A DNA stretch of 38,194 nucleotides from a virus (IMGVR_UViG_3300040771_000130:1-38194), one strand, 5' to 3'. Shown: positions 3,002 through 31,769, counted from the stretch's first letter. Notes: generated from the sequence alone by a model not told the origin. Numbers and translations are program-made.

Positions 3002-3024
3002 TATTATTAATCAATATATTATAT

Positions 3025-3963
3025 ATGAAATTATTAGAAATTAAAGAATTTTTACGAAATAAAAAAGGTTATTTAAAATTTGGAAAACACGCATTAGCTA
3101 ATCAATTAAAGATTAAAGACTTTGATTTATGTGAACAAGCTATTCGAGAAGTTAAAGCTGAATTGAGAAGTTATATACCAGGTATTACTACGCAACCTAA
3201 ACAAACTAATTTTAATATGTCAAATCTTAATAGAAATGATGTATTTAAAAATGCATTTTTTGACAATAGTAATTATGAGCAAAAAGCAATTGATGTTTTT
3301 AAAAAAGCTAAAACTGGTAAAAATGTTTTAGTTATTGGTGATTTACATGAACCATTTTGTTTAGACGGTTATTTAGAACATTGTTTAGAAACTTATCATA
3401 AATATAAATGTAATGAAGCTGTATTTATAGGCGATATAATAGACAACCATGCAAGTTCATATCACGAAACTGACCCTGATGGACATAGTGCAGGACAAGA
3501 ACTTAAACTTGCAATACAACGTATTAAACAATGGTATAATGCTTTTCCAAAAGCAACTGTAATTATTGGTAATCACGATAGATTAATAATGCGTAAAGCT
3601 TATTCAAGTGGTTTATCTAAAATGTGGATTAAAGGTTATGCTGAAGTATTAGGTACACCAGGATGGACTTTTACAGAATCAATTGAAATTGATGATGTAT
3701 TGTATATTCACGGTGAAGGTGGTACAGCAAGAGCTAGAGTTCGTAGAGATTTACAATCTGTAGTTCAAGGACATTTACATAGTCAAGCATATATTGATTG
3801 GTGTGTAGGAGCTAAATTTAAACTATTTGGAATGCAAGTTGGATGTGGAGTTGATAATAAAGCTTATGCTATGGCATATGGTAAAGAAGGTCCTAAACCT
3901 GCAATAGCATGTGGTGTAGTACTTCAAGGAGAAGTTCCAATAAATATAATGATGAATTTGTAA
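3025..3963 (+). CDS. Calcineurin-like metallophosphoesterase
   Basis: Motifs GDLHEPF, GDIIDNH, GNHD, IHG and QGHLH. The likely start is ATG 3025 (MKLLEIK), downstream of the promoter, rather than TTG 2971. Confidence 0.85.
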   Translation: MKLLEIKEFLRNKKGYLKFGKHALANQLKIKDFDLCEQAIREVKAELRSYIPGITTQPKQTNFNMSNLNRNDVFKNAFFDNSNYEQKAIDVFKKAKTGKNVLVIGDLHEPFCLDGYLEHCLETYHKYKCNEAVFIGDIIDNHASSYHETDPDGHSAGQELKLAIQRIKQWYNAFPKATVIIGNHDRLIMRKAYSSGLSKMWIKGYAEVLGTPGWTFTESIEIDDVLYIHGEGGTARARVRRDLQSVVQGHLHSQAYIDWCVGAKFKLFGMQVGCGVDNKAYAMAYGKEGPKPAIACGVVLQGEVPINIMMNL

Positions 3964-3973
3964 TAACAAACAT

Positions 3974-4004
3974 AACCCCAGCCATAATGGTGTGGGGTTT
4001 TTTT
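3974..4004 (+). terminator. Rho-independent terminator
   Basis: AACCCCA-GCCA-TAA-TGGTG-TGGGGTT hairpin followed by a T-tract, just after the phosphoesterase stop codon. Confidence 0.75.
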
Positions 4005-4016
4005 ATACTAAATAAT

Positions 4017-4697
4017 ATGAAAATCTCAAAAATGATATACGACGTTAGAACAGCTATTCGAGATACTGTTGATGACAGTCGTTTTTCAGATAGATACATA
4101 ATCTATCTTTACAATTTAAAACGTAGTAAATATCTACGTAATGATGCAAATAATTTACAAAGATTAGTTGATACTTCTATCTTACAAAAATTTTGTATGG
4201 AAATGGAAGAAGTATCAGTCGATGAATGTAGTTTAGAGTACGATTGCGGGACAATAATGCGTACAAAAGGTATTATACCCATTCCATTAGAATTACATCT
4301 TAAATCAGCTATAACAGAGGTTAAACCATCTGTTAAAATTACTAAACCTTTTAACTTTGTAAATAAAGAACGTGCTGTATGGAGTCAGTACTCACCATTT
4401 GGTGATTCAATATATTCGTTTTTAGATGTAGATAACTACATTTATTTAATTAGTAAATCTGAAACAGTTAAATTAATTGATTGTATTACAGTTACTGGAA
4501 TATTTGAAGACCCTTTAGAATTACAAAATTATAAAAATTGTTGTAACTGTAATGATGTAAAACCTTGTTTTGATGAAGATACTACAGAATATCCATTGCA
4601 AGCACATCACATTGACAACATACGTAACGAAATTATACAATCTCTTATTGGTTCATTAAATGTGCCAGAAGATAAAATAAATGATAGTAATGATTAA
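4017..4697 (+). CDS. crAss-like tail ring (tubular) protein
   Basis: Likely start is ATG 4017 (MKISKMIYDVR), within ORF 3909..4697. Size and position (ring, IHF-like, ring, muzzle) match the crAss-like tail module. Confidence 0.55.
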   Translation: MKISKMIYDVRTAIRDTVDDSRFSDRYIIYLYNLKRSKYLRNDANNLQRLVDTSILQKFCMEMEEVSVDECSLEYDCGTIMRTKGIIPIPLELHLKSAITEVKPSVKITKPFNFVNKERAVWSQYSPFGDSIYSFLDVDNYIYLISKSETVKLIDCITVTGIFEDPLELQNYKNCCNCNDVKPCFDEDTTEYPLQAHHIDNIRNEIIQSLIGSLNVPEDKINDSND

Positions 4698-12870: not shown

Positions 12871-14679
12871 ATGGCAAATAGATACGATTCAGGAAGCGTT
12901 TCAAAATTTAACCCTTTAAGCTTTCAAGAGTTATCTGCAGTTCCTTTAATGCAACGACAAAAACACGATCAACTAATAGCTCAACAAGAAATGTTAAGAC
13001 AAGGTTTAGCTAAAGTTGATCCTTTAGATGTTCATATGAATGAAGCGATTAACTTGAAATCCCAAATTGAAAATAAATTGGTATCTCAAGCAGAATTGTT
13101 GTCTAGAGAAGGTGTTAATCCAAATACACAAGGTGATTTTTTAGCTTTAAATAGAGAATATCAAAATATGGTATCACCTACAGGTAAACTTGGTCAAATT
13201 AATGCTGCTAAACAAGTATATGCTAAAAACTTTAATGATTTTGTAGAAGATGCTCAAAAAAATAAAGGTTGGTCTAGGGAAAGAGCTTTAGCTAACTGGG
13301 ATAGGTTTTCAAAACAATATACAGGGTTTGATAATGACAATATTACAAGTATTGGTCAATTAGGCGCACCTAAAAAAGTTGAAGTTATGGATGTGCTTAA
13401 AGATGTTAAAAGTTTATTAGGTGAACAAGTTGTAGGTGAAATGAGAGCTTCAGGATTTAATTTTAAACCAGGTCCTGACGGTAGTATGGTTATGGTCGAT
13501 AGAAGTGGTAGAAGAATTGAAACTTCAAATAAACCTAACTTACAGGCTGCTCAAAATCTTATTAATCAAAAGTTAATGGGTAGAGAATGGCAAGATTCAA
13601 TTAAATTTGAAGGTGAAAATACTTTAAATGTTTACAATCAACTTAGCTCAGGTATTAATAGTATGTTATCTAATAAAGTTGTAGATAATAGAACTGAAAA
13701 TGCACAATATATTGCAGCTCCTAAACCAGCTAAAGGAGAAACAACTAAAGGGTTATTATTTAATGACGCAATACAAGACCCTACTACTATTAAAAATTTA
13801 GATAAAGATACTGGTGAAATTAATTTTAGTAAAATTGGTAGTAAATTAGGAAGTACTGGCGGCGTTGGTTCTTCATTTACAATGGGTACAAGTGGTGGTT
13901 ATACTCCTGAAAAAGCAGGTATACAGACATATAAAGATGTTCTATCACCATTACAACAAAAATTTTATGAAACTGCTGCAAAAAGATTAACTACTTCGGG
14001 AAGACTTTCTAAAGGTGCGGATTTAAATAATCCTACAAATGCTGAAAAAATTGGATTTTATATGAAAAATTATATGAAGTTTCCAACAGTTGCATCAGAT
14101 ATTATTAGAGCAGATGTAGCTATTGATAATAATTTATTTTCAGGTAATTTAGCGTCTAAAGATGCTACTGCAAGAAATAGAACTTTAACACAAGATTTAA
14201 GACAAACTGAAAATGGTGCACCACTTAGAACAATGATTGACGTAGAAAGCGGTAAAAAAATTAAGTTTGAAACAGGTGATAAAGTAGACTATTTAGGTGT
14301 AGAATCTCCTATAAATTACAGTAATTACGGTTTTAAAAATAATTTTGAACAATCTACAATGGGTCATCGTGCTCAAATTTTAGATAAAAATGGTAATGTA
14401 AAAGCTAACGTAGTAATTAGTAGAACACCTAATGAAATGAAAGATCCTACATTTAAAAAGATGTATGAAATTAATCAATCTTATAAAACAGGACTTAATA
14501 ATTTAGGAGAATGGGTTAAACTTAGTGGTAAATATTCAGGAAGTAAAGAATTATCCAAAACTAAAGTTAAGGTTAATGATGATAATACTTTTCAAATACA
14601 GGTTGATGGTTATGAAACATCTCCAAAATTAAATAACGAACAGTTTATTCAACAAATGCAATCAATAATGGAATATTAA
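12871..14679 (+). CDS. Putative internal virion cargo protein (602 aa)
   Basis: Long Cys-free ORF coupled (1-nt gaps) to the neighbouring cargo genes. Confidence 0.55.
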   Translation: MANRYDSGSVSKFNPLSFQELSAVPLMQRQKHDQLIAQQEMLRQGLAKVDPLDVHMNEAINLKSQIENKLVSQAELLSREGVNPNTQGDFLALNREYQNMVSPTGKLGQINAAKQVYAKNFNDFVEDAQKNKGWSRERALANWDRFSKQYTGFDNDNITSIGQLGAPKKVEVMDVLKDVKSLLGEQVVGEMRASGFNFKPGPDGSMVMVDRSGRRIETSNKPNLQAAQNLINQKLMGREWQDSIKFEGENTLNVYNQLSSGINSMLSNKVVDNRTENAQYIAAPKPAKGETTKGLLFNDAIQDPTTIKNLDKDTGEINFSKIGSKLGSTGGVGSSFTMGTSGGYTPEKAGIQTYKDVLSPLQQKFYETAAKRLTTSGRLSKGADLNNPTNAEKIGFYMKNYMKFPTVASDIIRADVAIDNNLFSGNLASKDATARNRTLTQDLRQTENGAPLRTMIDVESGKKIKFETGDKVDYLGVESPINYSNYGFKNNFEQSTMGHRAQILDKNGNVKANVVISRTPNEMKDPTFKKMYEINQSYKTGLNNLGEWVKLSGKYSGSKELSKTKVKVNDDNTFQIQVDGYETSPKLNNEQFIQQMQSIMEY

Positions 14680-14680
14680 A

Positions 14681-17600
14681 ATGATAAACGGAAGAAAAAC
14701 ATACGATGATTATTTTAAAGATCGTGATAAAAAAAACGGAACTGTTCAGAATAAACCAAATCCAACATCTGGAATGTTTAGTAGAAATACATCTGGAGTA
14801 TTAGCTACTAATACTGATTATGGAAATTCTAAATATGATAAAAATTTAAACTGGGGTGCTGACATAAACCAAAACGATATTAGTGGATCTTTAAATGAAT
14901 TTAGATCTAAAGAACAAGGTATCTGGGATACTGCTGGCGCAGGCTTAGGTAGAATTGGTACTAAAGTAGGTGTTGAACTTGCTAAAACAGGAGCTGCAAT
15001 TGTAGGTACACTTGTTGGTTTAGCTGGAAATACTTCAGATTTAATTACAGGTAATGATGATACAGACTTTTTAGAAGTAGCTTTTAATAATGATTTTATT
15101 AAAGCTGCTGAAAAAATACAACAATCTGTAAATGAAGAATTTTTACCAGTATATGTAAGTGATACAGTAACTAATGGAAATTTTTTAGATAAAGTTACAA
15201 GTTCTGAATTTTGGGCAACAGATGGAGCTGATGGTGTAGGGTATTTACTATCTGCTATGGCTCCTGGAGCTGCTTTTAAAGGTCTAGGATTAGGTAACAA
15301 AATATTTGGTGGTGCTTCAAAATTAACAGCATTGAGATACGGTAAAAATGTTGAAACTGCTAGAAAGTTTTTAACTAAAGCTGGTTTAACAATCGATAAA
15401 ATTGATAGTTTTACAATACCTGCTGTTAATACTTATTTTGAAGCAGGAGCTGAAGCAAAAGGTGCGGGTGATGCAATTGAATCTAGAAAGCCTGAATTTT
15501 TAGATAATTACAAAATGAATTTTGACCAAAAAAATCCTGAGTTTATTCAAAAAGTTTCTAGTAAAATGGAAGCTTTAGATTTAGATAGACGTTCAGGTGT
15601 AATATCAGACATAGAATATAATTTGTTAAGTCAAAATATTGGTGAAGAAACAGTTAATGAAATGGCTGAATTTGCATTTAAAGAACAGAAAGGTAGAGCT
15701 ATGAGAAATACTTTTCTTACTAATTTAGCTGTATTAGCTGGACCTAATTATATTCAAGCTAAACTACTATATGGTAAAAATCCATCTAAAATAATGTTAG
15801 ATAAAATTACAGGTCAAGCTGTTGAGAAATCTGTTAAGAACACTGCTAAACAAGGATTAAAACGAGTAGGTCAATCATTTTTATCTGAAGGTTCTGAAGA
15901 AGTTGCACAAACATCTACGGAACAAAGAAATGTTAATAACGCTTTAAAAAATAAATTAAGTGAATATGCAATTAATGATATTGACCCGTTTACATTTGGT
16001 AAAGATTTTATTGAAACATTAAGTACTACAGAAGGTCAAGTTGCTGGGTTTTTAGGAGGTATGTTAGGAGCACCAATATCTATTGTAGGTGGTTATAAAC
16101 AAGATAAAGAAGATAGTGAACGTACAGAAAGATTACGTGCTAAAATTAATGGTCAATCTACTGCGTTAGACGATATTTATAATACTAATCTTTATGAACA
16201 AGAAGAATATGTAAATCCTGAAACTAATGAAACATTATTACGTGATAAAGAAGTTAATGGTAAAAAAGTATTAATACCTGAAAATGTAGCTAAAGTTAAA
16301 AAAGCTTTAGATTTACAAGAAGCTTTATCACAAGTATATGACCAAGCTGTACAAGATGCAGATACTGATATATTAGAATCTCTAAAAAAGCAAGCGGAGT
16401 TTAATATTATATCTAATTTTATTGGTGAGGAAGAAGTCACTTTAGATGCTTTAAACGAACATTTAAAAACTATATTTCCAGTAACTGAAAAAATGGAAGA
16501 TGGTTCAGAACTATCCCAAGAACAAGTTAAACAAAATACAGAGAATAAAGATAGAATTAGTAATGTAATTACTAAAGCTAAAGTATTACAAAAAGATTTG
16601 TTATCTTTTAAAGATATGTCACAATCTCTTATTAGATTAAATAATAAAAATGCTACACCTAAACAAATTGAAGAATTTTTAAATGGTGTTGGAAATGCAT
16701 TTTTATCTGAAAGAGCTGAAGAATTTGATGTAAAACAAAAGCTAGCTAAACTTGAAAAAGATCGTGCTGAATTAATGAAAGATTTACCTTTGGAAAGTAA
16801 AGGATTTTTTAAATCAAATTCTCAAACTTTAGAAGATTCTGAAAAATTAGCTAAAGTTAAAGAATCTAAAGTTAATGAAAATGGTTTTGCATTTTTAACT
16901 GACAATGAAATTTATAAAAATAACCCAAGATTAAATTTTATTAATAAACAGATTGAGACAGCTAAAAATCAATTAGAAGAATATAATAAAACTACTAATG
17001 AGTTAATTTGGAATAATGAATTTCTTAATAAACAATTTGATGCTAAAATCAAAGAAGATTCTGAAGTTAAAGAAGCGTTAAGTGAAGAAAATGTAGCTAA
17101 AAATGATGAAGCTATTGTTAAAGTAAAAGAAGCTACTACAGTTGAAGAAGTTGAAGCTATTGAAAAAACTACAAAGAATCCAGTAGTTAAAGAAAGAGCT
17201 GCTATTAAAAAAGCTGAAATTATTGAAGCTGAAAAATCTAAATCTGAACAAAAAATAGCTACTGCTACACAAGAAGATAATGACTTTAATAATCCAACAA
17301 ATTATGATGATTTAACAAGTACAGAAGGTTCAACTACTTCAGATGAACTTACACCTAAAGATAACGATAATAATTCAACAGAAGAACTTAAAAGTATTCA
17401 AAACACTGAAGTAGATAATGGTAAGGGTGTTAGAGTAATAAGTACAAATAGTGAAACAGGTGAAAAGTTTAGTTTTGTATCTGAAGAATATTTAAGTTAT
17501 GAAAGAAAACCTGTTGATAAAACAGGTAATGAAGTTAAATTTGAAATTAATCAAAATCCTGGTACAAATCCAAAAGTACTTGAAGCATTAGAAGCTTTTA

Positions 17601-19270
17601 ATAAAAAAGACTTTTCTAATCCCAAATTATTAATAGATTATTTACCTATTAATATAAAATTTAATAAAGATATTAGTGCTCCAATTGATACACGAAAAAT
17701 AACTGGTAAAATTAGTTCTTCTACTGAACTATTAAGAACAGAATTAATTAATAATTTAATTAATGGTGTAGATATTAAAAACATGTTTACAACTATTCAG
17801 GGTCAATATAAGGGTCTGTTAAAAGTTGATGATAATAGATTAGCTAATAACAATATTCTTCAATTAGACGGTGTTAAAGACTTAAAATATGTCCGTGAAA
17901 ATTTACACGTAGTAAATTCTTTTGGTAAATTACAGAATGTTTTAACTGGTAAAACTTTAGATTTTAACGATGGTAAAGTTAAAGAAAATGCTAAAGGTGA
18001 AATTTATTTAATGATTCCACAAGCTAACGGCACACCATTTCCTTTAAAGCTAAACATTAAAAAAATTAATGAAGCTGAAGCATCTTTACTTTATTATATT
18101 TATAGAGAAATCATAACTAATGATAAAGCTTTAAATACTACAGTTTCAGAAATTAGTAATGATTTAAAAGAGGCTATACAAACTAGTTTTAAAGCTGAAT
18201 TAGATATTATTGGTGGTAATAAAAATGATATTAAATTGCAAGAAATTATAGATTTATTAATATATCAATCTGATAATGTTAAATCTAAAATGCAAATTAA
18301 TAATGGTGTTTTATATTTTGGTGAAAATGAATCGACAATAGATACTATTGATAACGATATGAATAGTATTATTGAATACTTAGTTAATAGTAAAAGGCAT
18401 CAAATTAAAATTGATAAAAAATTTGATACCGATAATACTAAAACTAATTTAAAATCTAATTCTGCTGATTATCTTAAATATTTAATTGACAATTTAATAT
18501 TATCTACTAATGCTGTTGTTAATGAACCAACATTTCAAGGTTTTACTAATATTTATTTAAATACTAGTGTTGCTGTTTCTAATCAAATTAAAGCTGTTCA
18601 AACAACTACTATTACTAAAACTAACGAAGAGAAAATTGTTGAATTAAGAGCTGAAGAACAAGTTAAGAAAGCTGAGATTGAAAAAAGAAGAGAAACTTCG
18701 TTATTTGAAGGACGTTCAAGATTACAAAGAGAAAACTTTAATGAATATTTTAATGAAGTAAATTCACAGTACGATGCTGAACAGAAACAACTTTATGATG
18801 AATATGATAAGTTAATATCACCTTTATTAAATAAAAATACTAAAGTTTCAGAATCAGGGATTGAAGCTAATTCTGATAATTTTGAAGGTTTAGATTTTAA
18901 TAAACAACCTCAAACAACTACTGTTCAATTTCAACCTGTTGTATCAGAACAAGGTGTTGAAGTTAATGTAGAAGATACTGGTTTAAATAGTTTATTTGAA
19001 AATAATTCAGAAAATGTTAGGAATTCTCAAGAAAGTTTTGTACCTTTGTCAGAAATACAAGGTACTATGGAAAATACAGAGTTAAAAGAAACTCAAACTG
19101 AAGTTTTTAAAGAAGTTACAAATATTCCTTCAGCTACAGAAATGAGATTGTTAAATAAAGCTGCGACTATTTTTAAAAATAATCCTGAAAATTTAACAGA
19201 TTCTCAAAGAAAAAGACTTGAAGAAGCTGCGGTAAAATATCCAGAAACGTATAAAAAATTATGTAAATAA
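14681..19270 (+). CDS. Giant ejected/cargo protein (1529 aa)
   Basis: Several Gly/Ala-rich hydrophobic helices in the N-terminal third and long coiled-coils. It lies directly upstream of the virion RNAP. Confidence 0.65.
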   Translation: MINGRKTYDDYFKDRDKKNGTVQNKPNPTSGMFSRNTSGVLATNTDYGNSKYDKNLNWGADINQNDISGSLNEFRSKEQGIWDTAGAGLGRIGTKVGVELAKTGAAIVGTLVGLAGNTSDLITGNDDTDFLEVAFNNDFIKAAEKIQQSVNEEFLPVYVSDTVTNGNFLDKVTSSEFWATDGADGVGYLLSAMAPGAAFKGLGLGNKIFGGASKLTALRYGKNVETARKFLTKAGLTIDKIDSFTIPAVNTYFEAGAEAKGAGDAIESRKPEFLDNYKMNFDQKNPEFIQKVSSKMEALDLDRRSGVISDIEYNLLSQNIGEETVNEMAEFAFKEQKGRAMRNTFLTNLAVLAGPNYIQAKLLYGKNPSKIMLDKITGQAVEKSVKNTAKQGLKRVGQSFLSEGSEEVAQTSTEQRNVNNALKNKLSEYAINDIDPFTFGKDFIETLSTTEGQVAGFLGGMLGAPISIVGGYKQDKEDSERTERLRAKINGQSTALDDIYNTNLYEQEEYVNPETNETLLRDKEVNGKKVLIPENVAKVKKALDLQEALSQVYDQAVQDADTDILESLKKQAEFNIISNFIGEEEVTLDALNEHLKTIFPVTEKMEDGSELSQEQVKQNTENKDRISNVITKAKVLQKDLLSFKDMSQSLIRLNNKNATPKQIEEFLNGVGNAFLSERAEEFDVKQKLAKLEKDRAELMKDLPLESKGFFKSNSQTLEDSEKLAKVKESKVNENGFAFLTDNEIYKNNPRLNFINKQIETAKNQLEEYNKTTNELIWNNEFLNKQFDAKIKEDSEVKEALSEENVAKNDEAIVKVKEATTVEEVEAIEKTTKNPVVKERAAIKKAEIIEAEKSKSEQKIATATQEDNDFNNPTNYDDLTSTEGSTTSDELTPKDNDNNSTEELKSIQNTEVDNGKGVRVISTNSETGEKFSFVSEEYLSYERKPVDKTGNEVKFEINQNPGTNPKVLEALEAFNKKDFSNPKLLIDYLPINIKFNKDISAPIDTRKITGKISSSTELLRTELINNLINGVDIKNMFTTIQGQYKGLLKVDDNRLANNNILQLDGVKDLKYVRENLHVVNSFGKLQNVLTGKTLDFNDGKVKENAKGEIYLMIPQANGTPFPLKLNIKKINEAEASLLYYIYREIITNDKALNTTVSEISNDLKEAIQTSFKAELDIIGGNKNDIKLQEIIDLLIYQSDNVKSKMQINNGVLYFGENESTIDTIDNDMNSIIEYLVNSKRHQIKIDKKFDTDNTKTNLKSNSADYLKYLIDNLILSTNAVVNEPTFQGFTNIYLNTSVAVSNQIKAVQTTTITKTNEEKIVELRAEEQVKKAEIEKRRETSLFEGRSRLQRENFNEYFNEVNSQYDAEQKQLYDEYDKLISPLLNKNTKVSESGIEANSDNFEGLDFNKQPQTTTVQFQPVVSEQGVEVNVEDTGLNSLFENNSENVRNSQESFVPLSEIQGTMENTELKETQTEVFKEVTNIPSATEMRLLNKAATIFKNNPENLTDSQRKRLEEAAVKYPETYKKLCK

Positions 19271-19271
19271 T

Positions 19272-22200
19272 ATGAGTAAAGAATGTGGATTTATAGTAAA
19301 CGGTCAAAAATCACCGTTATATAATAAAATACTAGAAGGTTATAATGGAAATGAAGAGTTATCAATAATTCTTCATTCCCGTTTAAAAAGTGATGAACAA
19401 TTTATAAACGATTTTGGTGATTGGGTAAATGACTACGGTAAAGAACCTTCACAACAATCTGTAAATTATGAATATCAACCTGGTATTTTAAGAGTTGAAG
19501 AAAATGGTGAACCTAAACTTTTTAAAAATGAAAAGAATGGTAATTACTATTACATAGACAAAGATTTAAACAAAGTTGAAATTATTGAAAATCAAACGTC
19601 TTTAAGTTCGTTATTTGATAATTCACAAATTGAGAGACTTACTGATGTTTTAGTTTATGATTTTTTTAAAAATAATTTAAATATTAATTTTGAAGAAATA
19701 GATTTAACTGGTAATTATACTTCAATTAGAGATCGTATTACTATTAAATTAAATGAAAGAATTAATACGTTTAATAAAAGTGGTAATGAAAATTTTGAAG
19801 TGACTGCAGAGTTGTTGGAAATTGCATTAGAAGAAAATTTAGATGAGTTAGTTAAAAATGTAACTAATGCTTTAGAATCGTATAAAATTAAATCTTCTAA
19901 AGCTTTTAACGATAATGATGAAGATACTGATTTAGCTGATACTGAAGATAATGAAAATTCTAGAGATGTTAGTTTTGGTAAAGCATCTTTTGAAATGTCA
20001 ACTAAAGGTAATGTTTCAGCAAATGTTAAACTAAGATTATCATTAATTACAAATACATCATTTAAAGACACTTTTTTAAATGATAGTACATATCTAACTT
20101 TTGATGAAGTTTATGCTTCTTTACTACCTTATTTGACTAATCAAGTATCTGTTATTAAAGATGATAAACAAGAAGATAAGTTTGAAATTTATAAATCTAT
20201 AATTTTACAACTTCAAAATAAAAAACCTTATTTTGCAGAACTTTATCAATTGTTAAGTCAACCTACAATATCTGAAAATATTAAAAATGAATTTGTTCAA
20301 GCTTTTAGTTTAGACATAAACAACTTTAATACTTCAGAATACAGTTTTGAAGAATCTAAAGATGAAAAAACTTGGACTAAGTTAGAAGATGGTAAAATAG
20401 TTAAACCATTTGTTAAAAGCTTTAAAACTATGAATATCTCTGAAACTGGTAAAAAAGAGACAGATGTATTTAATGAATGGAATAAAAATTTTAAAGAAAA
20501 GTTTGTAACTGAAGGTAAACAAGGTTTATTAATATCACAGGAAAATAAAGATAAACTATCTTTAGTAAAATCAAATTTAAATAAATTAAAGTATTCAGAA
20601 CCTGATGTAGTTAATAAAATAATTACAGAATTAAGAAACTTGGGTATTGAAACTACTATTAAAGGTTTTAATCACTTTTTAGATGACTTTAAGTTAATTA
20701 ATAACGATAATGAAATATCTAATAAAAAGTTTAATAAATTAATATCTGATTTAAATTATTTAGTAGATAGAATTAATACTAATGTAAATAAGAATTTTAA
20801 TAGTATATTATCAGATCAACCTATAACTAAACAATTAGCTAAAGCCGAATCTTTTTACATATCAGAAGGTTCTGATGCGTCTGTATTTACAGCAGGTAAA
20901 CAAAAGTGGGTTTATTCATATCCGTCATATTTATCTAATACTATTAAATCTTGGAAAAAAGATAGAAATATTTTATCAAAACATTATGAAATATCTAAAT
21001 ACAATTTAGGTTCAGATTGGATGCAATATTTACTAGCGTTAGGTGACACATATCAAGTTGATGAATTTGAAAGTGATGACGTTCAAGAAGCTTTAAGAAT
21101 TGAAGAATCCAAAAAACGTATAGACGCTTTGGATTTATATACATTTAATACTTATCAATTGGAAGGTGATTCTAGAAATGGTAAAGACGGTAAAACAATT
21201 TCTAAAGAAGAATATATTTCTGATACAATTAATAAAGTATTAGGTTTTACTAAAAATGTTCAATCATACTACAGAACTACTACTCCTGCGGATAAAGGTA
21301 CACAATACGAAATAGCAATTGGTAGAAGCATTACAACTAACGCTAGATATGGTGACGGTAACCGTGATATTGTAATTGATGACAAAGCTGTAGATATTGT
21401 ATTTAAATATTTTGATGCTGAATATCAACGTATGAAATTTGAACGTGAGTTTAAAAATGATGCTAAAAATGCAGATAAATTAAGAGTTTATTATCATTTA
21501 GGTGCGGGTCACGCTTTTAAATCACAATTGTTTCCAGCATTAAATTATGATAAAATTAAGGATACTTTAAAAGATTCAAATTTAGATTTTAAAGATATTT
21601 ATAATGAAAAAGGTGAAGCATATTTAAGTACTCTTAGAAATTCAATATTTGAAGATGCTATTAAAACTTACATTGTAAATGAACTATCTAATGGTATTCA
21701 AGAAACTCTAGATAATTTAATTAAGACTAAAATATTTGAAGAAAATAGCGATGGAATTGCAAATAGAGAATTAGATAATGATATATGGAATTCTTATGGT
21801 ACAAATAATGCTTTAAAAGCCTCTGCAGATTTTTATATTAATTCTTTAATATCACATGTTGAATATTCTAAAATGTTTTCAGGTGATATTGCTTACTATA
21901 AAAATGCAGTAGATTATAAAAAACGTGTACCAGCAACATACACTGATGGTTTATATCAAAGACTTGATGAAGAAAATAAAGATGTAAATATCGCAGTAAT
22001 TGAAAGTGTTGAAATAAATGAACCATTTTTACCTGAATTAACAGAATTGTTAGGTGAAGACCTAGCTAATAAATATATTAGTGTAAATGCTGCAGATGCT
22101 CAGGCTTGGATTACACCTGCTAGATGGAAAATTCTAATGTCATCTATTGGAAAATGGAATGATACTTACGAATCAGCTTATCAAAAATTAATTGGTGAAA

Positions 22201-23375
22201 ATACTGAACCATTTACAGAAAAAGAATTAAAAGCTGTTGCACCACCTGTAAAAGGAGTTTATTTTCAAACAATAGATGGTGTACCAACATTTCTTAAATA
22301 TTCACAAGCTGTATTAAGTCCTAGATTACGTAAAGGTAATAATCTTGAAAAGATTTATAATAAGATGGTTGCTCAAAATATTGATGAGTTAGTTACGTTT
22401 GACGCAATTAAAGTAGGTTCTAACAAACCGACTAAAATTCACGATGATAATGGTCAACTTTTAGATAATTTTGAATTTACACCGTTTACAATACCTTCTA
22501 GTGGTTGGAAATTACAACAAGATTTACCTGTTAAATTAATGCACGATACTGATGTGGGTTCTCAAATTCAGAAAAACATATTTCAAGGTTTAGCATTTAA
22601 TTTAGATAAAATGTTTGATTTAGATAATAGTGAAGTTGAGGGTAATCAAATAGTAGAAAATATTGCTAACACAATTGGTGAATTATCTAATAGAGGTTAT
22701 GAATCATTATTAAAAGAATTTAATATTGCACCTAACGGAACTATTACAAATGTTGAAGGATTTTATAATTCTATTATTGCAGAATTAAAATCAACAGGTG
22801 GTTCTCAAAATGTAATTGATGCTTTAGAATCAGAAATGAGTATCTACGGTGTTGCTCAAGCTAAAGAAAAACTTGAAAACATATTTAGTTCTATATTTAC
22901 TAAAAGAATGCTTAAAATCAAAACTAATGGTGGTTCATTTATTCAAATGAGTAACTTTGGTTTTAATAAAGATGAAGCTAACGAGCAAAATGTAATTTGG
23001 AATCCTAGGTCATTAAAAACTACACATCCACCACAATTCCTTAAAGATGAAAACGGTGAGTTTGTATTATCTGAAAATGGTAAAAAAATTATTAGACCTG
23101 GTGGTATATTAATATCAGGTAGTTTTATTGCTAAATATATTCCAGATTATGCTACTAAATATACACCAGAACAATTATTTGGTTATACTGATGAAAATGG
23201 TAAATTTATAGAAGGGGTTATTGATAGAAAGATTCTTGAAAATATTATTGGATATAGAATTCCTAATCAAGGTTTGTCATCTAATGATGCTTTAGAAATA
23301 GTAGGTATTCTTCCTGAAGAAAATGGAGATACTGTTGTAGCTTATACAGGTATTACTACTAAAACTGGCTCTGAT
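19272..23375 (+). CDS. Virion-packaged DNA-dependent RNA polymerase (phi14:2 gp66-like), exon 1
   Basis: Motifs NAADAQ, GYRIPNQG and TKTGSD. Splicing to 24336 restores GSD-FDIDK, the DxDxD catalytic motif, giving 2136 aa in total. Confidence 0.9.
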
Positions 23376-24335
23376 AAAATATCACTGTTTGAGCCAGTAT
23401 AAAAAATAAAAATATTGTTAATTGCTGGAAACTCCTAAAGCTTTGTAAACTACAACGTAATTTGAAAAAATAAACGTGAATGTTAAAAATTACAAAGATG
23501 GCGAATGGACAATCAGCAGCCGAGTTCCTTTAAAATGGAAAGGGTTCAACGACTAATACTTAACTTAAAGATTCCTATATGGATATCACAATCATACAAT
23601 GAAAACAAAATTTAACAAAGAATCAAGAAATTTGATTATTGGAATGTTATTAGGAGACGGAACAATTTCTAATAATTACGTGTTTAAACTTTCACACGGA
23701 TACAAACAAAAAGAATATTTAGAATGGAAAATAAACCTTCTAAATAAATATGGAATAAAAAATAACGGTTTGAAAGAATATATTTCAACTTGTGGTTATA
23801 ATTTAGGTTCTATAGTTTATTATAGTCAAATGAGTGTTATACCATTTATGAAAGTTCTTAGAAGAGTTATTTATAAACCTATTAAAAATTACGCTAATCG
23901 TAAAATCTTAAATAGATTAAATCCTTTAGGTATTGCGATTTGGTATATGGATGATGGTCATATTAATATTAGAAAAACTGATGATAAAATTCACGGTTTC
24001 TATATTAAAATAGCTACTTGTTTATATAAAGAACAAAATCAAGTTATTATAGATTACTTTAAAGAAGTTTGGGATATATCTTTTTATCAATTTAAAGAAG
24101 GTAAGCCTGGAAAAAATACTTATTCGCTTTGTTGTGGTACACAAGAAGGTGTTAAGTTTATAGAATTAATTAAACCTTATGTAGAATCTTGTCCGTCGAT
24201 GATATATAAAATTCAGTATGATTTAAGTCAACGTAAAAATTGCGTTGCGTAGAGATTAAAATCTCGAAACACAATACACTAGAAATAGTGAAGATATAGT
24301 CTGATCTCATATGAAAGTATGAGTTAACACAAATG
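23376..24335 (+). mobile_element. Group I intron (960 nt) in the RNAP catalytic motif
   Basis: P1 helix ACTGGCTC(23364-71)/GAGCCAGT(23391-98), with U23375-G23387 wobble in the same register. P10 AATATCA(23378-84)/TGATATT(24338-44). Core elements: P AATTGCTGGAA (23420-30), Q AATCAGCAGC (23511-20), R GTTCAACGACTAA (23544-56), S AAGATATAGTCT (24291-302). P9 is CTCATAT-GAAA-GTATGAG. The terminal G is at 24335. Confidence 0.92.
23599..24252 (+). CDS. Intron-encoded LAGLIDADG homing endonuclease (two-motif, LAGLIDADG_2-like)
   Basis: Motifs IIGMLLGDG and IAIWYMDDG. The ORF lies between the intron R and S elements. Confidence 0.9.
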   Translation: MKTKFNKESRNLIIGMLLGDGTISNNYVFKLSHGYKQKEYLEWKINLLNKYGIKNNGLKEYISTCGYNLGSIVYYSQMSVIPFMKVLRRVIYKPIKNYANRKILNRLNPLGIAIWYMDDGHINIRKTDDKIHGFYIKIATCLYKEQNQVIIDYFKEVWDISFYQFKEGKPGKNTYSLCCGTQEGVKFIELIKPYVESCPSMIYKIQYDLSQRKNCVA

Positions 24336-26642
24336 TTTGATATTGATAAAATGTACATGATGTTTGCATCATACAGATTAGAAAATGATAAATTAATATA
24401 TGAAACTTTTGATAATTCTAAACCTGAATCAGAACAATCTGAGGAAGCTTTACAAAATAGATTAGTAGAATTATATAAATCTGTTTTAATTAACGAAAAT
24501 GTTATTGGTGAAGTAATGACACCTGTAGATTTTACACACGTTAAAGATGATATAATGCATTTTGGTGATAAAACATCTAGTGGTAATTTATCTACATTTG
24601 ATCCATTAAAAGATATTGATACTAAATACGATTTCTTATCAGGTAAAGCAGGTGTAGGTCAACAAGCTAATTCATTAATGGATTATGTGTTAGGTAGTAT
24701 GGGTAATTTAAGTATTACTAATTTTAATGTACCTAAAAGTAATTTAAGATTTGATCAAGAATATTCTGCAAAATTATCTAATGAAGATTTAGAATATTAT
24801 GCTAAACAATTAGATTTAAATCCTAATGAAGTTAAACAATTAGAATTTATTAAAATTGGACATTCTTTATCTGCAATTCTTAACGCATTTGTGGACATCG
24901 CTAAAGATCCATACATTACTAGAGGTAATTGGGTTACAATGACAACTAATACAGGTAATTTATTATTACGTAAAGGTGTACATCCATTTTATGTAAATGC
25001 TTTTTTAGCACAACCTATTATTAAAGAATATGTAGCATTTTCATCACAATATGAAGTTTCTGCGGGTCAAAGTTTAAGTACTGCTGATGAATTTATTAAA
25101 CAAAGATTTGGTAAAGACGTTTATGAAAATAGAAATAATTCTAATATATTTAATGAAAGTTTACAAACATTAAGAAGTGCTAAATTTTTAAGTAATACAT
25201 CTTCACAAATGAATGTATTTGCTACTTTTTTACAATACCAAGCTGCATCTAAAGCGATGAAAAAGAATATTGATGCTTCTAAATTTATGGTGAATGGTGT
25301 TGGAGGTAGTGTAAATTCATTAATAATTTCTAAAAATGCTGTAGATTCTATATTAGATGAAGAAGATAAATACAATCAATTAGAAGATAAAACAGAGTTT
25401 AAGAAAAATATTATATTAGGTTTTAAATCTAAATTTACAAACCCTAATGGTTCTGAAAGTATGTTTAGTAAATATTATAACAATGTTATTTTAAAATCTG
25501 AACAAATTGTCAAAAGTAACCCTAAATTATTTTTTACAGGAAACAGTGTTATTCAAGAAACCTTTAATGAAATTTCAACTGATGTGAATAATGAACTATT
25601 ATTAGATAATGATTTTGGTAAAGATTTAAACAGAATGTTTTATAGTTATGTTATGTCAGGATTTAATTCTTTAAACATGTCTAGTGTTGAAAGAAAAGAA
25701 TTGACTTTAAAATTTAGTAATGAATTTGAGGCTTTTAAATTAGCAAATAAAGGTAAATATGCTATTATTGACGAACTTAATGTAAAACAAGGTGATAGTT
25801 TAGAATTTATAGGTTTAAATAATAGAAAGAAATCTAAAGATTACGAAAGAAAGTTAACTAAATCATTTTTAGATTTGTTAAATAATGAAGAAGATTTTAC
25901 TAACAAACTTATTAAATATTCTTATTTAACATCTGGATTTAATAATCACACTAGTCAATTTTTTACTATGATACCTACACAATGGTTTAATAGAAATAAT
26001 ATTAACAGATATATTATTGACAAGTCTAAAGAATATGATAAATTAAATTTAGAAAATGATGATAACTTTATTGATCAATTTTATTTATCTAACTTAGAAA
26101 ATACTAAATTTGTTAGACCTATTTCTCAAAAACAGGTATTACCAAAATCTGGAAGTCTTGAAGGATTTGTAATAAAAAATCCTGGTAAAGTAGGTTATTT
26201 TAGAGTTGGTAAAGATCCACAAGGTATTAATCCTGATACATATTATAAACTTATTGGATATAATAAAGATTATCAAGGTATTTATACTAGATTTATTTAC
26301 AACATTAATGATGAACTAACTCAAATTAAACCACTTAATGTTAAAGATAAAAAAGGTAATAGAATTATTAATTATGATGTAAACGGTATTAACCTTAAAC
26401 CATTAACTGAAACAGCACCTAAACTTGTTGAAAGCATTAATAAAGTTAAATTAGCTAATTTATATTCTAATGTAGTTTATAACAGAAATGTGTTTTACAG
26501 AGAAAACGTTATTATTAAAAAAGAAGATGATGTTAAGATTATAGAGACACCTAAAGAAATTACAACTGAAACTAAACTTATTGTTGAAGAAAATAATGAT
26601 TGGACTAAAGAAGATAATAATGATACTTGTGTACCATTTTAA
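24336..26642 (+). CDS. Virion RNA polymerase, exon 2
   Basis: Begins FDIDKMY and contains 'LNAFVDIAKDPYI'. It is in frame with exon 1 after splicing. Confidence 0.9.
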   Translation, partial: FDIDKMYMMFASYRLENDKLIYETFDNSKPESEQSEEALQNRLVELYKSVLINENVIGEVMTPVDFTHVKDDIMHFGDKTSSGNLSTFDPLKDIDTKYDFLSGKAGVGQQANSLMDYVLGSMGNLSITNFNVPKSNLRFDQEYSAKLSNEDLEYYAKQLDLNPNEVKQLEFIKIGHSLSAILNAFVDIAKDPYITRGNWVTMTTNTGNLLLRKGVHPFYVNAFLAQPIIKEYVAFSSQYEVSAGQSLSTADEFIKQRFGKDVYENRNNSNIFNESLQTLRSAKFLSNTSSQMNVFATFLQYQAASKAMKKNIDASKFMVNGVGGSVNSLIISKNAVDSILDEEDKYNQLEDKTEFKKNIILGFKSKFTNPNGSESMFSKYYNNVILKSEQIVKSNPKLFFTGNSVIQETFNEISTDVNNELLLDNDFGKDLNRMFYSYVMSGFNSLNMSSVERKELTLKFSNEFEAFKLANKGKYAIIDELNVKQGDSLEFIGLNNRKKSKDYERKLTKSFLDLLNNEEDFTNKLIKYSYLTSGFNNHTSQFFTMIPTQWFNRNNINRYIIDKSKEYDKLNLENDDNFIDQFYLSNLENTKFVRPISQKQVLPKSGSLEGFVIKNPGKVGYFRVGKDPQGINPDTYYKLIGYNKDYQGIYTRFIYNINDELTQIKPLNVKDKKGNRIINYDVNGINLKPLTETAPKLVESINKVKLANLYSNVVYNRNVFYRENVIIKKEDDVKIIETPKEITTETKLIVEENNDWTKEDNNDTCVPF

Positions 26643-26651
26643 TAAAAAAAT

Positions 26652-29600
26652 ATGAATTGTAAAGATAAAAAGAAATTTAAAACTGCTGAAGCATCAAGTA
26701 AAGCCTCCTTACGTACTAAGGGGGCTATCGATGCTTTTTTAAACATATTAGATGTTAATAAGTTTAATAAACTTAATAAAGAATGGACTGTAGATGCTGT
26801 AAAAAGATTTGATATTACAGGTAAATTGTTTTATAATGAAAACGATAAAGCTGTTGCTAATAAGGAAGCTTTTAAACAAATAGATAACGCTAAAGGTGTT
26901 AATTATTCTATAAATGAAAATAAGAGTATTTCAAATTCAATTTTTGAAAGTGATAATAAACAAATAATTAAAAGTTTACAAAAATTTGCAAAAGATAAAA
27001 AAGTAAATTTAAATTTTGTTGATTTTAAGGATGAAAAAGGGTTTACAACTTATGGTAGTTATGATAAGAAAACAAACTCTGTAAATTTAAATGAAAACAA
27101 TATAGATTCTTCTACATTTTTACATGAAATATCACATCCATTTGTTACTTATTTAAATTCAAAAAATCCTGAATTATTTAATAAAGTTTATAAAGAAGCT
27201 AAAAAGTTATATCCTGAAATAAGTTCATTTTTAGATATTGAAGCTTACTCAAACATGCCAGAATCTTGGAAACAAGAAGAGTATATTGTTAGAGCAATTG
27301 AAAAAGAATATAAAATTAAAGATTTAAAAGTAAGACGTTCAATATTAAATAAATTTTTAGATTTTATTAAAGAACTGTTTGGTATTGAAAATAATATTAA
27401 AATATCTGAAGATGCTACAATTAAAGATTTATATCAAATAATTCTTTCTAATAATGTAGTAAAGTTAGATGTTAAAATGACAGATAATATTGCACGAAGA
27501 GAACTTGAAAATATTGAAAATTATTTTGATATTAAAATTAGTAATACAAATGAAAAATTATTAGCATTAAGAGGTAAGTTATCTAATTTTAAAGATAATG
27601 TTAAAATTGGAGATTTTCAAATTGATAACAGTGTTCTTGAAGAAGTTGGACCTTTAGAATATGAAGTAACTAAAGAAATTTACGATAATCAGTTATTTAA
27701 TATTACAGACGCTATTGATAATTTAGAAACTCAAATTGAAGCTTTAGAATCATTAAAAAAGCAGAATCAAATTCAAATTAGAAAAAATATAAAAGGTTAT
27801 TATAATATTAAACCTGAAATTGATAGAGTAAATTTTAACGATCTTATAGGGTCTAAAAAAAACGAAGTTACTTCTAATGAATCACAAGAAAATAGTGAAA
27901 CTAATTCTAATTTAGATACAAATCAAACAATGTTGTTTGGTACTAAATCATTAAAAGATTCTTTTACATCAACTGAAGTATTACAAAACATTATAAATTC
28001 TAATTTAGATTTATCTGCATCAACTATTAATTTAATTGACAAAGCTACGAAACTTTTAAGAAATTCTAAAACCAGAGTTAAAGTAATTAGTCAAGAACAA
28101 TTTGATAAAATGACTACAAATTCTGAAGGTGAAGGCACTGCAGTAATGGCTTACAATTACGATTTAGGAAGTGTTATTTATATGCCAGAAAGTACATTAA
28201 GTAATTTTTCAAATCTAGATATTGTTAGTTCATTTTTACACGAAGTTGCTCACGAATTAAGTTTAAAAGCTATTTTAAATCCTGAAACAATGTCTGAAAT
28301 AGCATTTAACGAGTTTATTACAAAAGCTTTTGAGCAATACAAATATTTAGGTAAAGGTTTAAACAATAGTAATAGTTATGGTTTTACAAATATTCAAGAA
28401 TTTGTAGCTGAATTATATTCTAATGATAAGTTTCAAAATGAAATTAAAAGTTTAGATAAGAATTTCTGGCAACGATTTATATCTGAACTTAGAAGATTGT
28501 TAGGTTTACCAAAGTCTTTAAGAAACGATAATTTAATTGACAGTATATTATTAATAGAAAAGGTTAATGATTTTATAAATGAAAATGACTCTCAACTTGA
28601 AAATTATAAATTAGCGGGTTTAAAAAGTAGTAGAATTTTAGCAAAACGTATTGAAGATGATTCTCAATATAGTAGTTTAGAATCTAAAATTGATAACTTT
28701 ATTGCTAAAGCTAAAAAAGCTATGCAATCCATTCAAGAACGTACTATTAAATCTAATAGAAAAAAGTCTACTGAATCTAAAGAAGAAAACATTAGACGTA
28801 ATAAAGAACTGTTAGATACTTTAACTAAGTATGAAACTTCTCAAAAATGGAAAGCTGTTGTGGGTTATACACAATCTTTTAATAATACAATTAATCAAGT
28901 AAATGACTTATTAGATAAACTTTTAAATACTAAAAATATTTATGAAGATCAATTAGAAAGTACTATTAAACGTTATAAAGATTATCTATCTGCATATGAT
29001 TTACTTCCTGAAATTAAAGAGTTAATGAGTCAAGCAGATTTAAAATTGTTTGAATTAACTGATGAAGAAAAAGAAGATTATCAACAGTTAAAAGATTTTT
29101 TATCTAAAGCTAAAGAAAAACATGATGCTATTGAAAGTAAATTTTTAGCAATTAGTAAAGCTCAGGTATTACAAGATTTTAGTAATCCATTATTCAATAC
29201 AGAAGTTGAAACTAAACAACGTGAATTTCTAATTAGAGAATACAATAGTTTATCTGATAAAGGTGGTTTAAGTGTAGAACAATATGTTTCTAAAATGTTA
29301 ACTACTAGAGATAAAGATGATTATGAAGTGGATTTAAAAGCATCTGCTGAAAAAATTCTTAATGATCCATCACAAGATATTAGTGGATTTTCTGCTAAAT
29401 TAGACGACCAGTTAAATACTAAAAGTAAACTTATTCAAGTTGTTAACCAAATGTTAGGTGCATCATTTGACGCTGTTAAAACATTAACAGTTACTAAAAT
29501 TAAAGAAATGTCTAAAACTTTTGAAAAATTTATTAAAGAAAAAGGTAATGTTAAATTATCTGTACTTAATAAAAATTTAATTGAAAAAGATAGTGAAGGT

Positions 29601-31769
29601 AACGTTTATTTAAAAGGTAAATACAGTTTAGCATTTAAAGAAGCTTTTGACAACGAATTAAGACCTGTTTTAAACGCTAGGAGAGATTATTATGAGTCTT
29701 CTATAGAATTAGGTCTTGAAGAAGGGGATATTCTCTCTAGTGACAAATATAAAGCTTTTAATTATCAAATTAGTCAATGGTATAAAAAATATACCACTAA
29801 AGATTCAAAACGTAAAACAATACCTAAAGCTGAATATTTAAATAAACCTTTAACTGGTACTGAAAAAGAAATATTAGACGGCTATATTAAAATTAATCAA
29901 GACAACAATGAAATTGAAGGTTTTGATTCATTAATTACTAATATTGCAGGAGCTGAGTTTCATAAATTACCATCTCAAAGTAAATCTGATTTAGAAAGAG
30001 CTTTAGAAGCTGATTTCAAAGGTATTACTAAAGATAAATGGAATGATTTAACTAAAATTAGAACTGACGATATCGGTATAGATAGTGGTAGTGAAGAAAA
30101 GAATAGTCAAGGTGATATTTTAAGACGTGTTAAAACTGCTTATAGAGGTAAAATAGACGCTAACGAACAATCTTTAGATTTAGAAACAATGTTTAGGAAT
30201 GAATATTGGAATGGTCAAAATGTTAAAGAAAAACTTAGACTTGAACCTAAACTATTAATGATTACTGATATAGCTAAAGATAAAGAATACTATACTGGTA
30301 AAAATAAAGAAGTTGTTGCTGGTTTAAGCAATACTTATAACAGATTGGTAGGTTTAATGGAACGTAACGTTTATGATGTTATGAGTAAAAGTGGTGGTAC
30401 ATTTGCAGGTGCAGATATTAATAAAGTAACAAGTGCTTTAAACGGATATGCAGCAGGTTTAGCTATGACATTTAACTTAGCATCAGGTGTTACCAACGTT
30501 GCAAATGGTTTAACCCAAGTATTAATTGAATCAGTAGGTGGTAATAGATTTAATACTAAAACATTTTTAAAAGCAGAAGCTAGATATACTAAAGAAATGA
30601 TGAATGGTAATTTACTTAAAAATATGAGTAAATCTGTTAAAACTTCTTACTTTAATCAACTTCTTGAAATGTTTGATGTAATGGGTGGTCTCGGTCAAAA
30701 TGAACAGGAAGCCTTACGTAACACTATTCTTAGAAAATTTGGAACTACTAAATCTGGTAATTTTTTAAATGAATCTGGTGAACATGCAATGCACGCAATA
30801 CTTACAGAATCTATATTAGATGGTATTAAAGCAATGGATGTTAATAACAACTACTTAGATAAAGATGGTAATGTAACTACTGAAAATAAAGGTGCTTCGT
30901 TAGCAGACATGTTGTATTTTGATAATAATGGTCAACTGCAAATGAATTCTAAAGTTGCATATTCAGGATTTAATTTAACTACTAAATATCACGAAGGTGG
31001 TAAATCTCAAATTAATTTATTAATTAAACACAAAGTATTTGATTTATTTGGTGTTTATGATATTAAATATAAAAATGAATTATCTAAAGCTTGGTGGGGT
31101 AAATCTATAATGATGTTTAAAAACTTCTTTATGGGTGCAGCTAATTACAGATATACAGGATTTGCTACATCTTATAAAAAGAAATCCGATTTATCAGAAG
31201 ACGATAAATTTTATAACTCTGCTGAAAAAGAATATATTGAAGGTACATATACAACACTTGTTAGATTTTTAAGAGAAACGGGTGTTCCAAATTTAAAAAG
31301 TTTGCAAACAATGTATATGAACTGGAATAATCTTACAGAGTATGAAAAGTCTAATGTTAAAAAAGCAACTATGGAAATAATGCTAACTGCTGTAATATTA
31401 CCTTCAATTGGTTTATTAATGGCTGGTATGGATGATGACGATGATGAAAGCAATTTACTGTGGTTTGCAATGTATGTAAATAGACGTTTAACACGAGAAC
31501 TTGCACAGTTTAGAAATCCAATTGAGGCTTCTAAAATGATTCAAAACCCTGTTGCAGGTATTAGATTTATTCAAAACGGATTAAATTTTATATATGATGT
31601 TGCAACACCTATTAACTTTGCACCAGTTGAAAATGAATCAATATTTGGATATTTAGATGAAAATTCTAAAGGTGAAAACAAAATGAGTAAACACTTAACT
31701 AAACTTATACCAATTATTCCTCAAATGGGAGTAGATTATAGACAGAGGTTTGGGTTAGAATTTAAATAA
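26652..31769 (+). CDS. Giant ejected polyvalent protein with two zincin-like HExxH domains and a C-terminal hydrophobic segment (1705 aa)
   Basis: FLHEISH (27123-37) and FLHEVAH (28239-53), each followed by a downstream Glu (EEYIVRA, EFVAE). C-terminal IMLTAVILPSIGLLMAG and LLWFAMYV. Confidence 0.7.
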   Translation: MNCKDKKKFKTAEASSKASLRTKGAIDAFLNILDVNKFNKLNKEWTVDAVKRFDITGKLFYNENDKAVANKEAFKQIDNAKGVNYSINENKSISNSIFESDNKQIIKSLQKFAKDKKVNLNFVDFKDEKGFTTYGSYDKKTNSVNLNENNIDSSTFLHEISHPFVTYLNSKNPELFNKVYKEAKKLYPEISSFLDIEAYSNMPESWKQEEYIVRAIEKEYKIKDLKVRRSILNKFLDFIKELFGIENNIKISEDATIKDLYQIILSNNVVKLDVKMTDNIARRELENIENYFDIKISNTNEKLLALRGKLSNFKDNVKIGDFQIDNSVLEEVGPLEYEVTKEIYDNQLFNITDAIDNLETQIEALESLKKQNQIQIRKNIKGYYNIKPEIDRVNFNDLIGSKKNEVTSNESQENSETNSNLDTNQTMLFGTKSLKDSFTSTEVLQNIINSNLDLSASTINLIDKATKLLRNSKTRVKVISQEQFDKMTTNSEGEGTAVMAYNYDLGSVIYMPESTLSNFSNLDIVSSFLHEVAHELSLKAILNPETMSEIAFNEFITKAFEQYKYLGKGLNNSNSYGFTNIQEFVAELYSNDKFQNEIKSLDKNFWQRFISELRRLLGLPKSLRNDNLIDSILLIEKVNDFINENDSQLENYKLAGLKSSRILAKRIEDDSQYSSLESKIDNFIAKAKKAMQSIQERTIKSNRKKSTESKEENIRRNKELLDTLTKYETSQKWKAVVGYTQSFNNTINQVNDLLDKLLNTKNIYEDQLESTIKRYKDYLSAYDLLPEIKELMSQADLKLFELTDEEKEDYQQLKDFLSKAKEKHDAIESKFLAISKAQVLQDFSNPLFNTEVETKQREFLIREYNSLSDKGGLSVEQYVSKMLTTRDKDDYEVDLKASAEKILNDPSQDISGFSAKLDDQLNTKSKLIQVVNQMLGASFDAVKTLTVTKIKEMSKTFEKFIKEKGNVKLSVLNKNLIEKDSEGNVYLKGKYSLAFKEAFDNELRPVLNARRDYYESSIELGLEEGDILSSDKYKAFNYQISQWYKKYTTKDSKRKTIPKAEYLNKPLTGTEKEILDGYIKINQDNNEIEGFDSLITNIAGAEFHKLPSQSKSDLERALEADFKGITKDKWNDLTKIRTDDIGIDSGSEEKNSQGDILRRVKTAYRGKIDANEQSLDLETMFRNEYWNGQNVKEKLRLEPKLLMITDIAKDKEYYTGKNKEVVAGLSNTYNRLVGLMERNVYDVMSKSGGTFAGADINKVTSALNGYAAGLAMTFNLASGVTNVANGLTQVLIESVGGNRFNTKTFLKAEARYTKEMMNGNLLKNMSKSVKTSYFNQLLEMFDVMGGLGQNEQEALRNTILRKFGTTKSGNFLNESGEHAMHAILTESILDGIKAMDVNNNYLDKDGNVTTENKGASLADMLYFDNNGQLQMNSKVAYSGFNLTTKYHEGGKSQINLLIKHKVFDLFGVYDIKYKNELSKAWWGKSIMMFKNFFMGAANYRYTGFATSYKKKSDLSEDDKFYNSAEKEYIEGTYTTLVRFLRETGVPNLKSLQTMYMNWNNLTEYEKSNVKKATMEIMLTAVILPSIGLLMAGMDDDDDESNLLWFAMYVNRRLTRELAQFRNPIEASKMIQNPVAGIRFIQNGLNFIYDVATPINFAPVENESIFGYLDENSKGENKMSKHLTKLIPIIPQMGVDYRQRFGLEFK

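Follow-up and report, generated by a model that had tools for sequence, protein, structure and literature searches.

No phages in the human gut are more abundant than Crassvirales. It is an open question how their cargo, about 5 MDa of protein that includes the polymerase setting infection in motion, is delivered (PMC10172136; PMC13434306), and the crAss-like phage sequence IMGVR_UViG_3300040771_000130:1-38194 (26% GC; the whole stretch of 38,194 nucleotides is called the window below) raises it in a particular form: why do three giant proteins encoded by consecutive genes contain only four cysteines in 5370 residues, all of them at the ends that face one another? The proteins, all encoded on the plus strand, are A (1529 residues; 14681..19270), the RNA polymerase (RNAP) B (exon 1 at 19272..23375, exon 2 at 24336..26642) and C (1705 residues, with two HExxH motifs; 26652..31769). 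They are homologous to g067, g066 and g065 of Cellulophaga phage phi14:2 and to gp47, gp50 and gp49 of Bacteroides phage crAss001, which have the same order and are found in virions. On comparative sequence evidence, the best reading, to which we assign a probability of roughly 0.6, is that disulfides link A, B and C in head-to-tail order: cysteines that occur only at facing ends, are lost on gene fusion and are gained on gene fission would be explained most simply by facing thiols bonding each other.

Terminal cysteines in the window and across Crassvirales

Translation of all open reading frames (ORFs) in the window matched every coordinate in a preliminary description, according to which the three giants have only four cysteines, none more than five residues from a junction-facing end. 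All four codons are TGT on the plus strand: the sole Cys of A is its penultimate residue (Cys1528, position -2, in the C-terminal sequence YKKLCK; 19262..19264); the sole Cys of exon 1 of B is Cys5 (MSKECG; 19284..19286) and that of exon 2 is Cys2133, fourth from the end (position -4, in the C-terminal sequence NDTCVPF; 26628..26630); and the sole Cys of C is Cys3 (MNCKDK; 26658..26660). The RNAP length of 2136 residues given there was also recovered by splicing, which restores the catalytic motif and places Cys at 5 and 2133 of the joined protein, and the two cargo proteins encoded upstream (658 and 602 residues; 10893..12869 and 12871..14679, plus strand) are Cys-free as described. Internal cysteines number zero in the 6630 residues of the cargo proteins, A, B and C.

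The chance that four of four cysteines would fall within the 20 terminal positions that face a junction, out of 5370, is approximately 2e-10, and about 69 would be expected in A, B and C at the Cys content of control ORFs from related loci (1.28%). Cys accounts for 0.06% of residues in A, B, C and the two cargo proteins taken together, compared to 0.96% in the tail and muzzle proteins of the window and 1.81% in its minus-strand genes plus the intron ORF; this LAGLIDADG ORF, nested in the gene for B, has 6 Cys in 217 residues, unlike the exons that surround it. TGY triplets are common in the third frame (81 in A, 68 in exon 1 and 44 in exon 2 of B, 78 in C) and occur once each in the coding frame, indicating that the depletion acts on the amino acid and not on base composition. 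The placement of Cys in the window is highly non-random.

The same block of genes (10893-31769) is also poor in His (0.48%; tail proteins have 1.35% and early genes 2.84%, and three of the 1529 residues of A are His) and in Trp (0.54% versus about 1.1%).

A profile scan yielded 80 IMG/VR loci with core identities of 84% to 23%, which form 39 clusters at 70% and 16 clusters at 50%. With a junction between adjacent giant ORFs counted as paired if Cys lies within 12 residues of the facing end on both sides, 117 of the 124 junctions in these loci are paired, bearing out the co-conservation in homologues (phi14:2, crAss001 and IMG/VR) whose absence, according to the preliminary description, would have refuted its proposal. 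Each of the seven exceptions has an explanation: three are intron pseudo-junctions, and the others are a poly-A frameshift in locus L055, a truncated A in L046, an A with its Cys at -32 in L031, and a mis-called start in L068 (MAC at residues 23-25). The RNAP ORF is interrupted in L055 at a stretch of poly-lysine (poly-A; 11668-11725) and intact in L056, which is otherwise identical; the break is probably a sequencing or assembly frameshift.

The same four cysteines are found in more than 140 IMG/VR loci with core identity as low as 23%, in two close IMG/VR relatives, in crAss001 (gp47, gp50 and gp49) and in phi14:2, where they are residue 1797 of 1797 in g067, residues 3 and 2179 (of 2180) in g066, and residue 3 in g065, with no further Cys in the three proteins. 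The rule extends to IAS virus, crAssphage, crAss002, FpV4, cr4_1 and cr53_1. The N-terminal Cys is residue 3 in 84 of 121 cases, in the context M-[A/S]-C-[K/G/T/I], and the C-terminal Cys lies at -1 to -3 in 103 of 115; among control ORFs, 5% have any Cys in the first 12 residues and 11% in the last 12. Over the last 300 residues of A (37 sequences, alignment A2), columns average 12% identity and none but the Cys is invariant; in the first 300 residues of B (alignment A3) the Cys is one of three invariant columns. Among 57 B/C pairs, the Cys is the only column at least 90% conserved both in the last 300 residues of B and in the first 300 of C, a result that is independent for the C N-termini only, the 57 B C-termini having been chosen for carrying Cys.

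Outer termini (the N-terminus of A and the C-terminus of C), which had been described as free of Cys, have it in no genuine case among about 70 complete cases each; every apparent instance was an inner terminus whose neighbour had been cut off by the contig end. Internal Cys makes up 0.044% of the giants across loci versus 1.28% of controls. Its density differs approximately 20-fold between the split-gene, mostly environmental clade (L008-L060; 0.08 per 1000 residues) and the clade with B+C fusions (L068-L087, including human-gut crAssphage; 1.67 per 1000 residues), and the higher value may reflect a constraint relaxed in anoxic habitats.

An M-x-C start and a Cys no more than about three residues before the stop can be used to correct start calls. 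The annotated start of crAss002 gp33 (L006, MN917146.1, 13286-13390), for example, seems 32 codons early, with M-S-C at residues 33-35, after a terminator-like hairpin.

Fusions, fissions and gene order

Some Crassvirales encode A and B as one protein (FpV4 gp32, L057, L061-L067 and others) and some encode B and C as one (crAssphage gp44, crAss002 gp33); the cysteine pair of the fused junction is gone and the other pair is kept. FpV4 gp32 (A+B, 4287 residues) has a single Cys at 4286, and gp33 begins MAC; crAssphage gp44 and crAss002 gp33 begin MSC, and the proteins that precede them end in SCM or VCS. The A+B fusions of Suoliviridae cr4_1 and cr53_1 have the same ends. Internal cysteines are entirely absent from the fused proteins of L061, L062, L065, L067, L073 and L074, and it is from this total absence, not from residue-level alignment of the junction, that loss of the junction pair is read: a hidden Markov model of the first 300 residues of B matched only L061 among the A+B fusions, from profile position 169 onward, and the fused junction is not alignable residue by residue. 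A CxxxC motif in L070 and Cys2220 of crAssphage gp44 were considered as relics of fused junctions and rejected as sporadic substitutions missing in close relatives. The authors of the phi14:2 RNAP preprint proposed that fused forms are cleaved polyproteins.

A tree of the core of B implies at least three changes of architecture by fusion or fission. An extra module of approximately 1170 residues illustrates both states: in L061 it forms a gene of its own (14296-17799), placed between A+B and C, with Cys at 4 and -2, and in L053 (1-10884) the same module is fused to the ORF containing B, with no junction Cys. Where B is interrupted by an intron (the window, L012, L013, L024, L140, L142 and L144), the pseudo-termini so created have no Cys. 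The Cys rule can be used to separate true gene boundaries from intron and frameshift breaks in giant genes.

The four codons in the window lie within about 25 nucleotides of two gene junctions, as they would if the TGT triplets were part of a nucleotide signal such as a terminator or one for translational coupling. However, the gene for A is convergent to those for B and C, and far from B, in crAss001, IAS virus and 15 crAss001-like loci, yet A keeps its Cys at -1 to -4 and B keeps its own at 3-7. The terminal codons, moreover, are TGC in 21 of 236 cases (TGT in 215), and the junction spacers, some with hairpins, vary from an overlap of the two genes to 57 nucleotides and share no motif. The convergent genes, the substitution of TGC and the variable spacers exclude a nucleotide signal for practical purposes, and with the chance value given above for the window we regard such a signal, or coincidence, as extremely improbable. 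As judged from these comparisons, the Cys rule tracks protein ends, not DNA.

A proposed head-to-tail chain and its alternatives

In the proposed mechanism, A, B and C would be made separately, packed in the capsid and linked by two intermolecular disulfides, from the C-terminus of A to the N-terminus of B and from the C-terminus of B to the N-terminus of C. A disulfide is favoured because it needs only one Cys per side, as found. With the bonds a few residues from the chain ends, the product would be one unbranched thread of approximately 5370 residues, a covalent counterpart to the one-chain fusion proteins of other crAss-like phages and suited to proteins that partly unfold to exit: crAss001 cargo must partly unfold, the constrictions of the tail being narrower than 50 Å (PMC10172136). 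The thiols would oxidise once the termini adjoin in the virion, probably after it leaves the reducing cytoplasm; the thread would let partly unfolded proteins cross the narrow portal and tail serially, in fixed order and at a ratio of 1:1:1; and thiol reductants of the host cytoplasm would then release the subunits. Stray cross-links would knot the thread or make it branch, which may be why internal Cys has been purged from all the cargo.

Structural prediction counts in favour of this arrangement: AlphaFold2 places Cys5 of B in a flexible N-terminal coil before the first β-hairpin (mean predicted local distance difference test score, pLDDT, 79.7) and the Cys of A just past the last confidently predicted helix. 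Co-folding of the terminal peptides, suggested by the preliminary description, was run for the A-B pair, and its outcome lends weak support: the last 300 residues of A with the first 300 of B scored 0.50, versus 0.03 for the best control, with no interface reported. Of 80 solved complexes, 58 attained the pass mark, as did 2 of 110 mismatches; the range up to 0.60 holds 7 of the 80 solved complexes together with both passing mismatches. Three runs of the A-B pair share at least 24% of contacts, with partner pLDDT of at least 66.

Several points weigh against a disulfide-linked chain. The bond is a prediction from sequence comparison, and the counterparts of A, B and C are not resolved in the crAss001 map (PMC10172136). 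The reducing cytoplasm precludes disulfides at assembly and gut crassviruses live in anoxic habitats, which makes the timing of bond formation puzzling. Only three to four independent fusion or fission events lie behind the covariation. Some cysteines lie farther from the end (-12 in A of L045, -32 in A of L031 and -14 in B of L156). Lastly, small cargo proteins of Intestiviridae and FpV4 have orphan terminal cysteines with no facing partner (crAssphage gp47, residue 856 of 857; crAssphage gp48, 259 of 264, and crAss002 gp30, 550 of 557, both in RCGG; FpV4 gp30, Cys5), so terminal thiols may have a role other than pairing.

These orphans, together with the weak co-folding of A and B, favour the alternative that the terminal thiols matter but bond elsewhere: to a host thiol-disulfide oxidoreductase of the periplasm or cytoplasm at entry, to the portal or scaffold at packing, or to a second copy of the same protein. 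Fusion would abolish any terminus-specific function, so loss alone is no proof of pairing. We nevertheless consider bonding elsewhere unlikely, though the strongest of the alternatives, because it leaves unexplained both the Cys-free N-terminus of A and C-terminus of C and the removal by each fusion of exactly one predicted pair with the other intact, fails to account for Cys at both ends of the inserted separate gene, and, where the partner is a fixed part of the virion, would block ejection. A different assignment of partners, with B circularised N- to C-terminus and A bonded to C, or with homotypic dimers (A-A, C-C) and polymers of B, has in its favour that sequence alone cannot assign partners and that a virion contains each protein in several copies (PMC10172136); each fusion, however, would then break two pairs and orphan two cysteines that would have to re-pair, whereas head-to-tail bonding needs no rewiring, and we hold such pairings to be very unlikely.

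A metal (Zn, Cu(I) or Fe) bridging the two thiolates would preserve the head-to-tail arrangement; two facing cysteines could coordinate a metal linearly, and the bridge could form under the reducing conditions within the cell. It is improbable, if somewhat less so than the alternative pairings, since each terminus has one Cys, only 27 of the 235 termini with Cys have a His among their terminal 20 residues, the surroundings of the Cys show no other conservation, and the flanks are mostly Lys, which is unfavourable to a cation site. The single Cys per terminus and the scarcity of His likewise disfavour the shared Zn site that the preliminary description had offered beside the disulfide, and a zinc hook, with CxxC or Cys/His ligand sets in each chain, was rejected for the same reasons. 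Two other identities were discarded. A split intein or trans-splicing, in which Hint halves would flank the junction and Cys would be the first residue of the intein and the +1 residue of the extein, has no room for its halves, the Cys being 1-5 residues from the ends, and no Pfam Hint or intein domain was found in A, B or C; a lipobox Cys would stand in L-x-x-C at the end of a hydrophobic signal peptide of about 15-25 residues, and the Cys is residue 3 in most N-termini, with no such leader.

The nearest mechanistic analogue of the proposed disulfide chain is provided by the di-chain AB toxins (such as diphtheria toxin and the clostridial neurotoxins), in which one disulfide spans the nick between two chains, and the cargo chain crosses a narrow channel in the unfolded state and is freed by cytosolic reduction. 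The likeness is one of working only, with no homology: the toxin chains come from one nicked polypeptide, whereas those of crAss-like phages come from separate genes, are three in number and total approximately 0.6 MDa, and their conduit would be the phage tail. Disulfides between subunits do form in crassvirus virions, those of the crAss001 tail (the gp57 dimer, and tail hub to ring proteins R1 and R2) being real intermolecular bonds (PMC10172136); these staple a static structure, whereas in the proposed chain the parts linked at their ends would be mobile cargo.

The Schitoviridae ejection proteins (N4 gp50; DEV gp71, gp72 and gp73) resemble the cargo described here in that a giant packaged RNAP and the proteins co-ejected with it are almost Cys-free, at 0.00075% Cys versus 0.865% in the proteome, for which passage through the oxidising periplasm is the rationale given (PMC11445570). 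As in that family, Cys frequency in the crAss-like giants (internal 0.044% versus 1.28%) is far below that of the rest of the proteome; in contrast to the complete absence of conserved Cys by which that type is recognised, four terminal cysteines are invariant across relatives. The N4-type virion RNAP is a single polypeptide with zero Cys, whereas here there are three genes with one Cys per facing end, and the folds of the N4-type and crAss RNAPs are unrelated (PMC13434306). Suppression of Cys in the cargo of the window is therefore a new instance of a known phenomenon (PMC11445570). The terminal pairs are another matter: the literature searched on crAss or Crassvirales with cysteine or disulfide contained nothing on cargo cysteines, which also go unmentioned in the phi14:2 RNAP preprint and in the crAss001 paper (PMC10172136), and the pairs and the head-to-tail link are apparently undescribed.

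We would give even odds to the wider proposition that Crassvirales stitch their separately encoded giant cargo proteins into one unbranched pseudo-polypeptide of approximately 0.6 MDa by terminal disulfides, such that gene fusion and disulfide linkage are interchangeable, the bonds dictate in which order and ratio the proteins are ejected, and the RNAP is freed, and possibly activated, when the bonds are reduced in the host cytoplasm. If true, this would explain the purge of Cys from the cargo proteins, the free interconversion of fused and split gene architectures and the enforcement of ejection order and stoichiometry, and would add a redox-released tether to the known mechanisms of phage protein ejection. 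A rule of invariant residues from which specific covalent links can be predicted offers a direct handle on cargo delivery.

The gene module and its neighbours

B is matched at E 1.6e-148 by the phi14:2 virion RNAP gp66 (PDB 6VR4) and is a gp66-type two-barrel RNAP with the DFDID motif; phi14:2 g066 aligns with it at 31% identity (tblastn E 1e-151), and the BLASTP counterparts of A and C are g067 (E 3e-47) and g065 (E 1.5e-111). The first cargo protein is identified by Pfam crAss_CARG1 (E 1.8e-20) and by BLASTP to crAss001 gp45 (E 9e-12), and the second occupies the position of crAss001 gp46 and phi14:2 g068. The two cargo proteins (C1 and C2) followed by A, B and C make up the layout of the Crassvirales RNAP/cargo module. 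Homologues of A, B and C are present in virions according to the annotation, based on mass spectrometry, of the phi14:2 record and to virion mass spectrometry of crAss001 (PMC10172136), and the presence in virions and ejection of the window's own A, B and C are predicted from these homologues. Pfam returned no domain match in A, B or C, no Rfam family reached the gathering threshold anywhere in the window, the intron included, and megablast of the window against phages gave short matches only.

The RNAP of the window differs from those of phi14:2 and crAss001 by its intron (23376..24335, plus strand; boundaries inferred from unsplit homologues), which contains the LAGLIDADG endonuclease ORF (23599-24252, plus strand; Pfam LAGLIDADG_2, E 5e-24). 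Exon 1 ends in TKTGSD and exon 2 begins with FDIDK; joining position 23375 to 24336, by comparison with unsplit homologues, restores the catalytic sequence TGSD-FDIDK as in unsplit relatives. The intron therefore cuts the RNAP exactly within its catalytic motif (GSD-FDIDK), and B is split at a similar place in the related loci L012, L013, L024, L140, L142 and L144.

The tail-gene block contains two overlapping plus-strand ORFs that are unusually rich in Cys: 2971-3963, which starts with TTG, has 7 and 3909-4697 has 9. They are possible counterparts of the crAss001 tail hub or ring proteins, which are stapled by disulfides.

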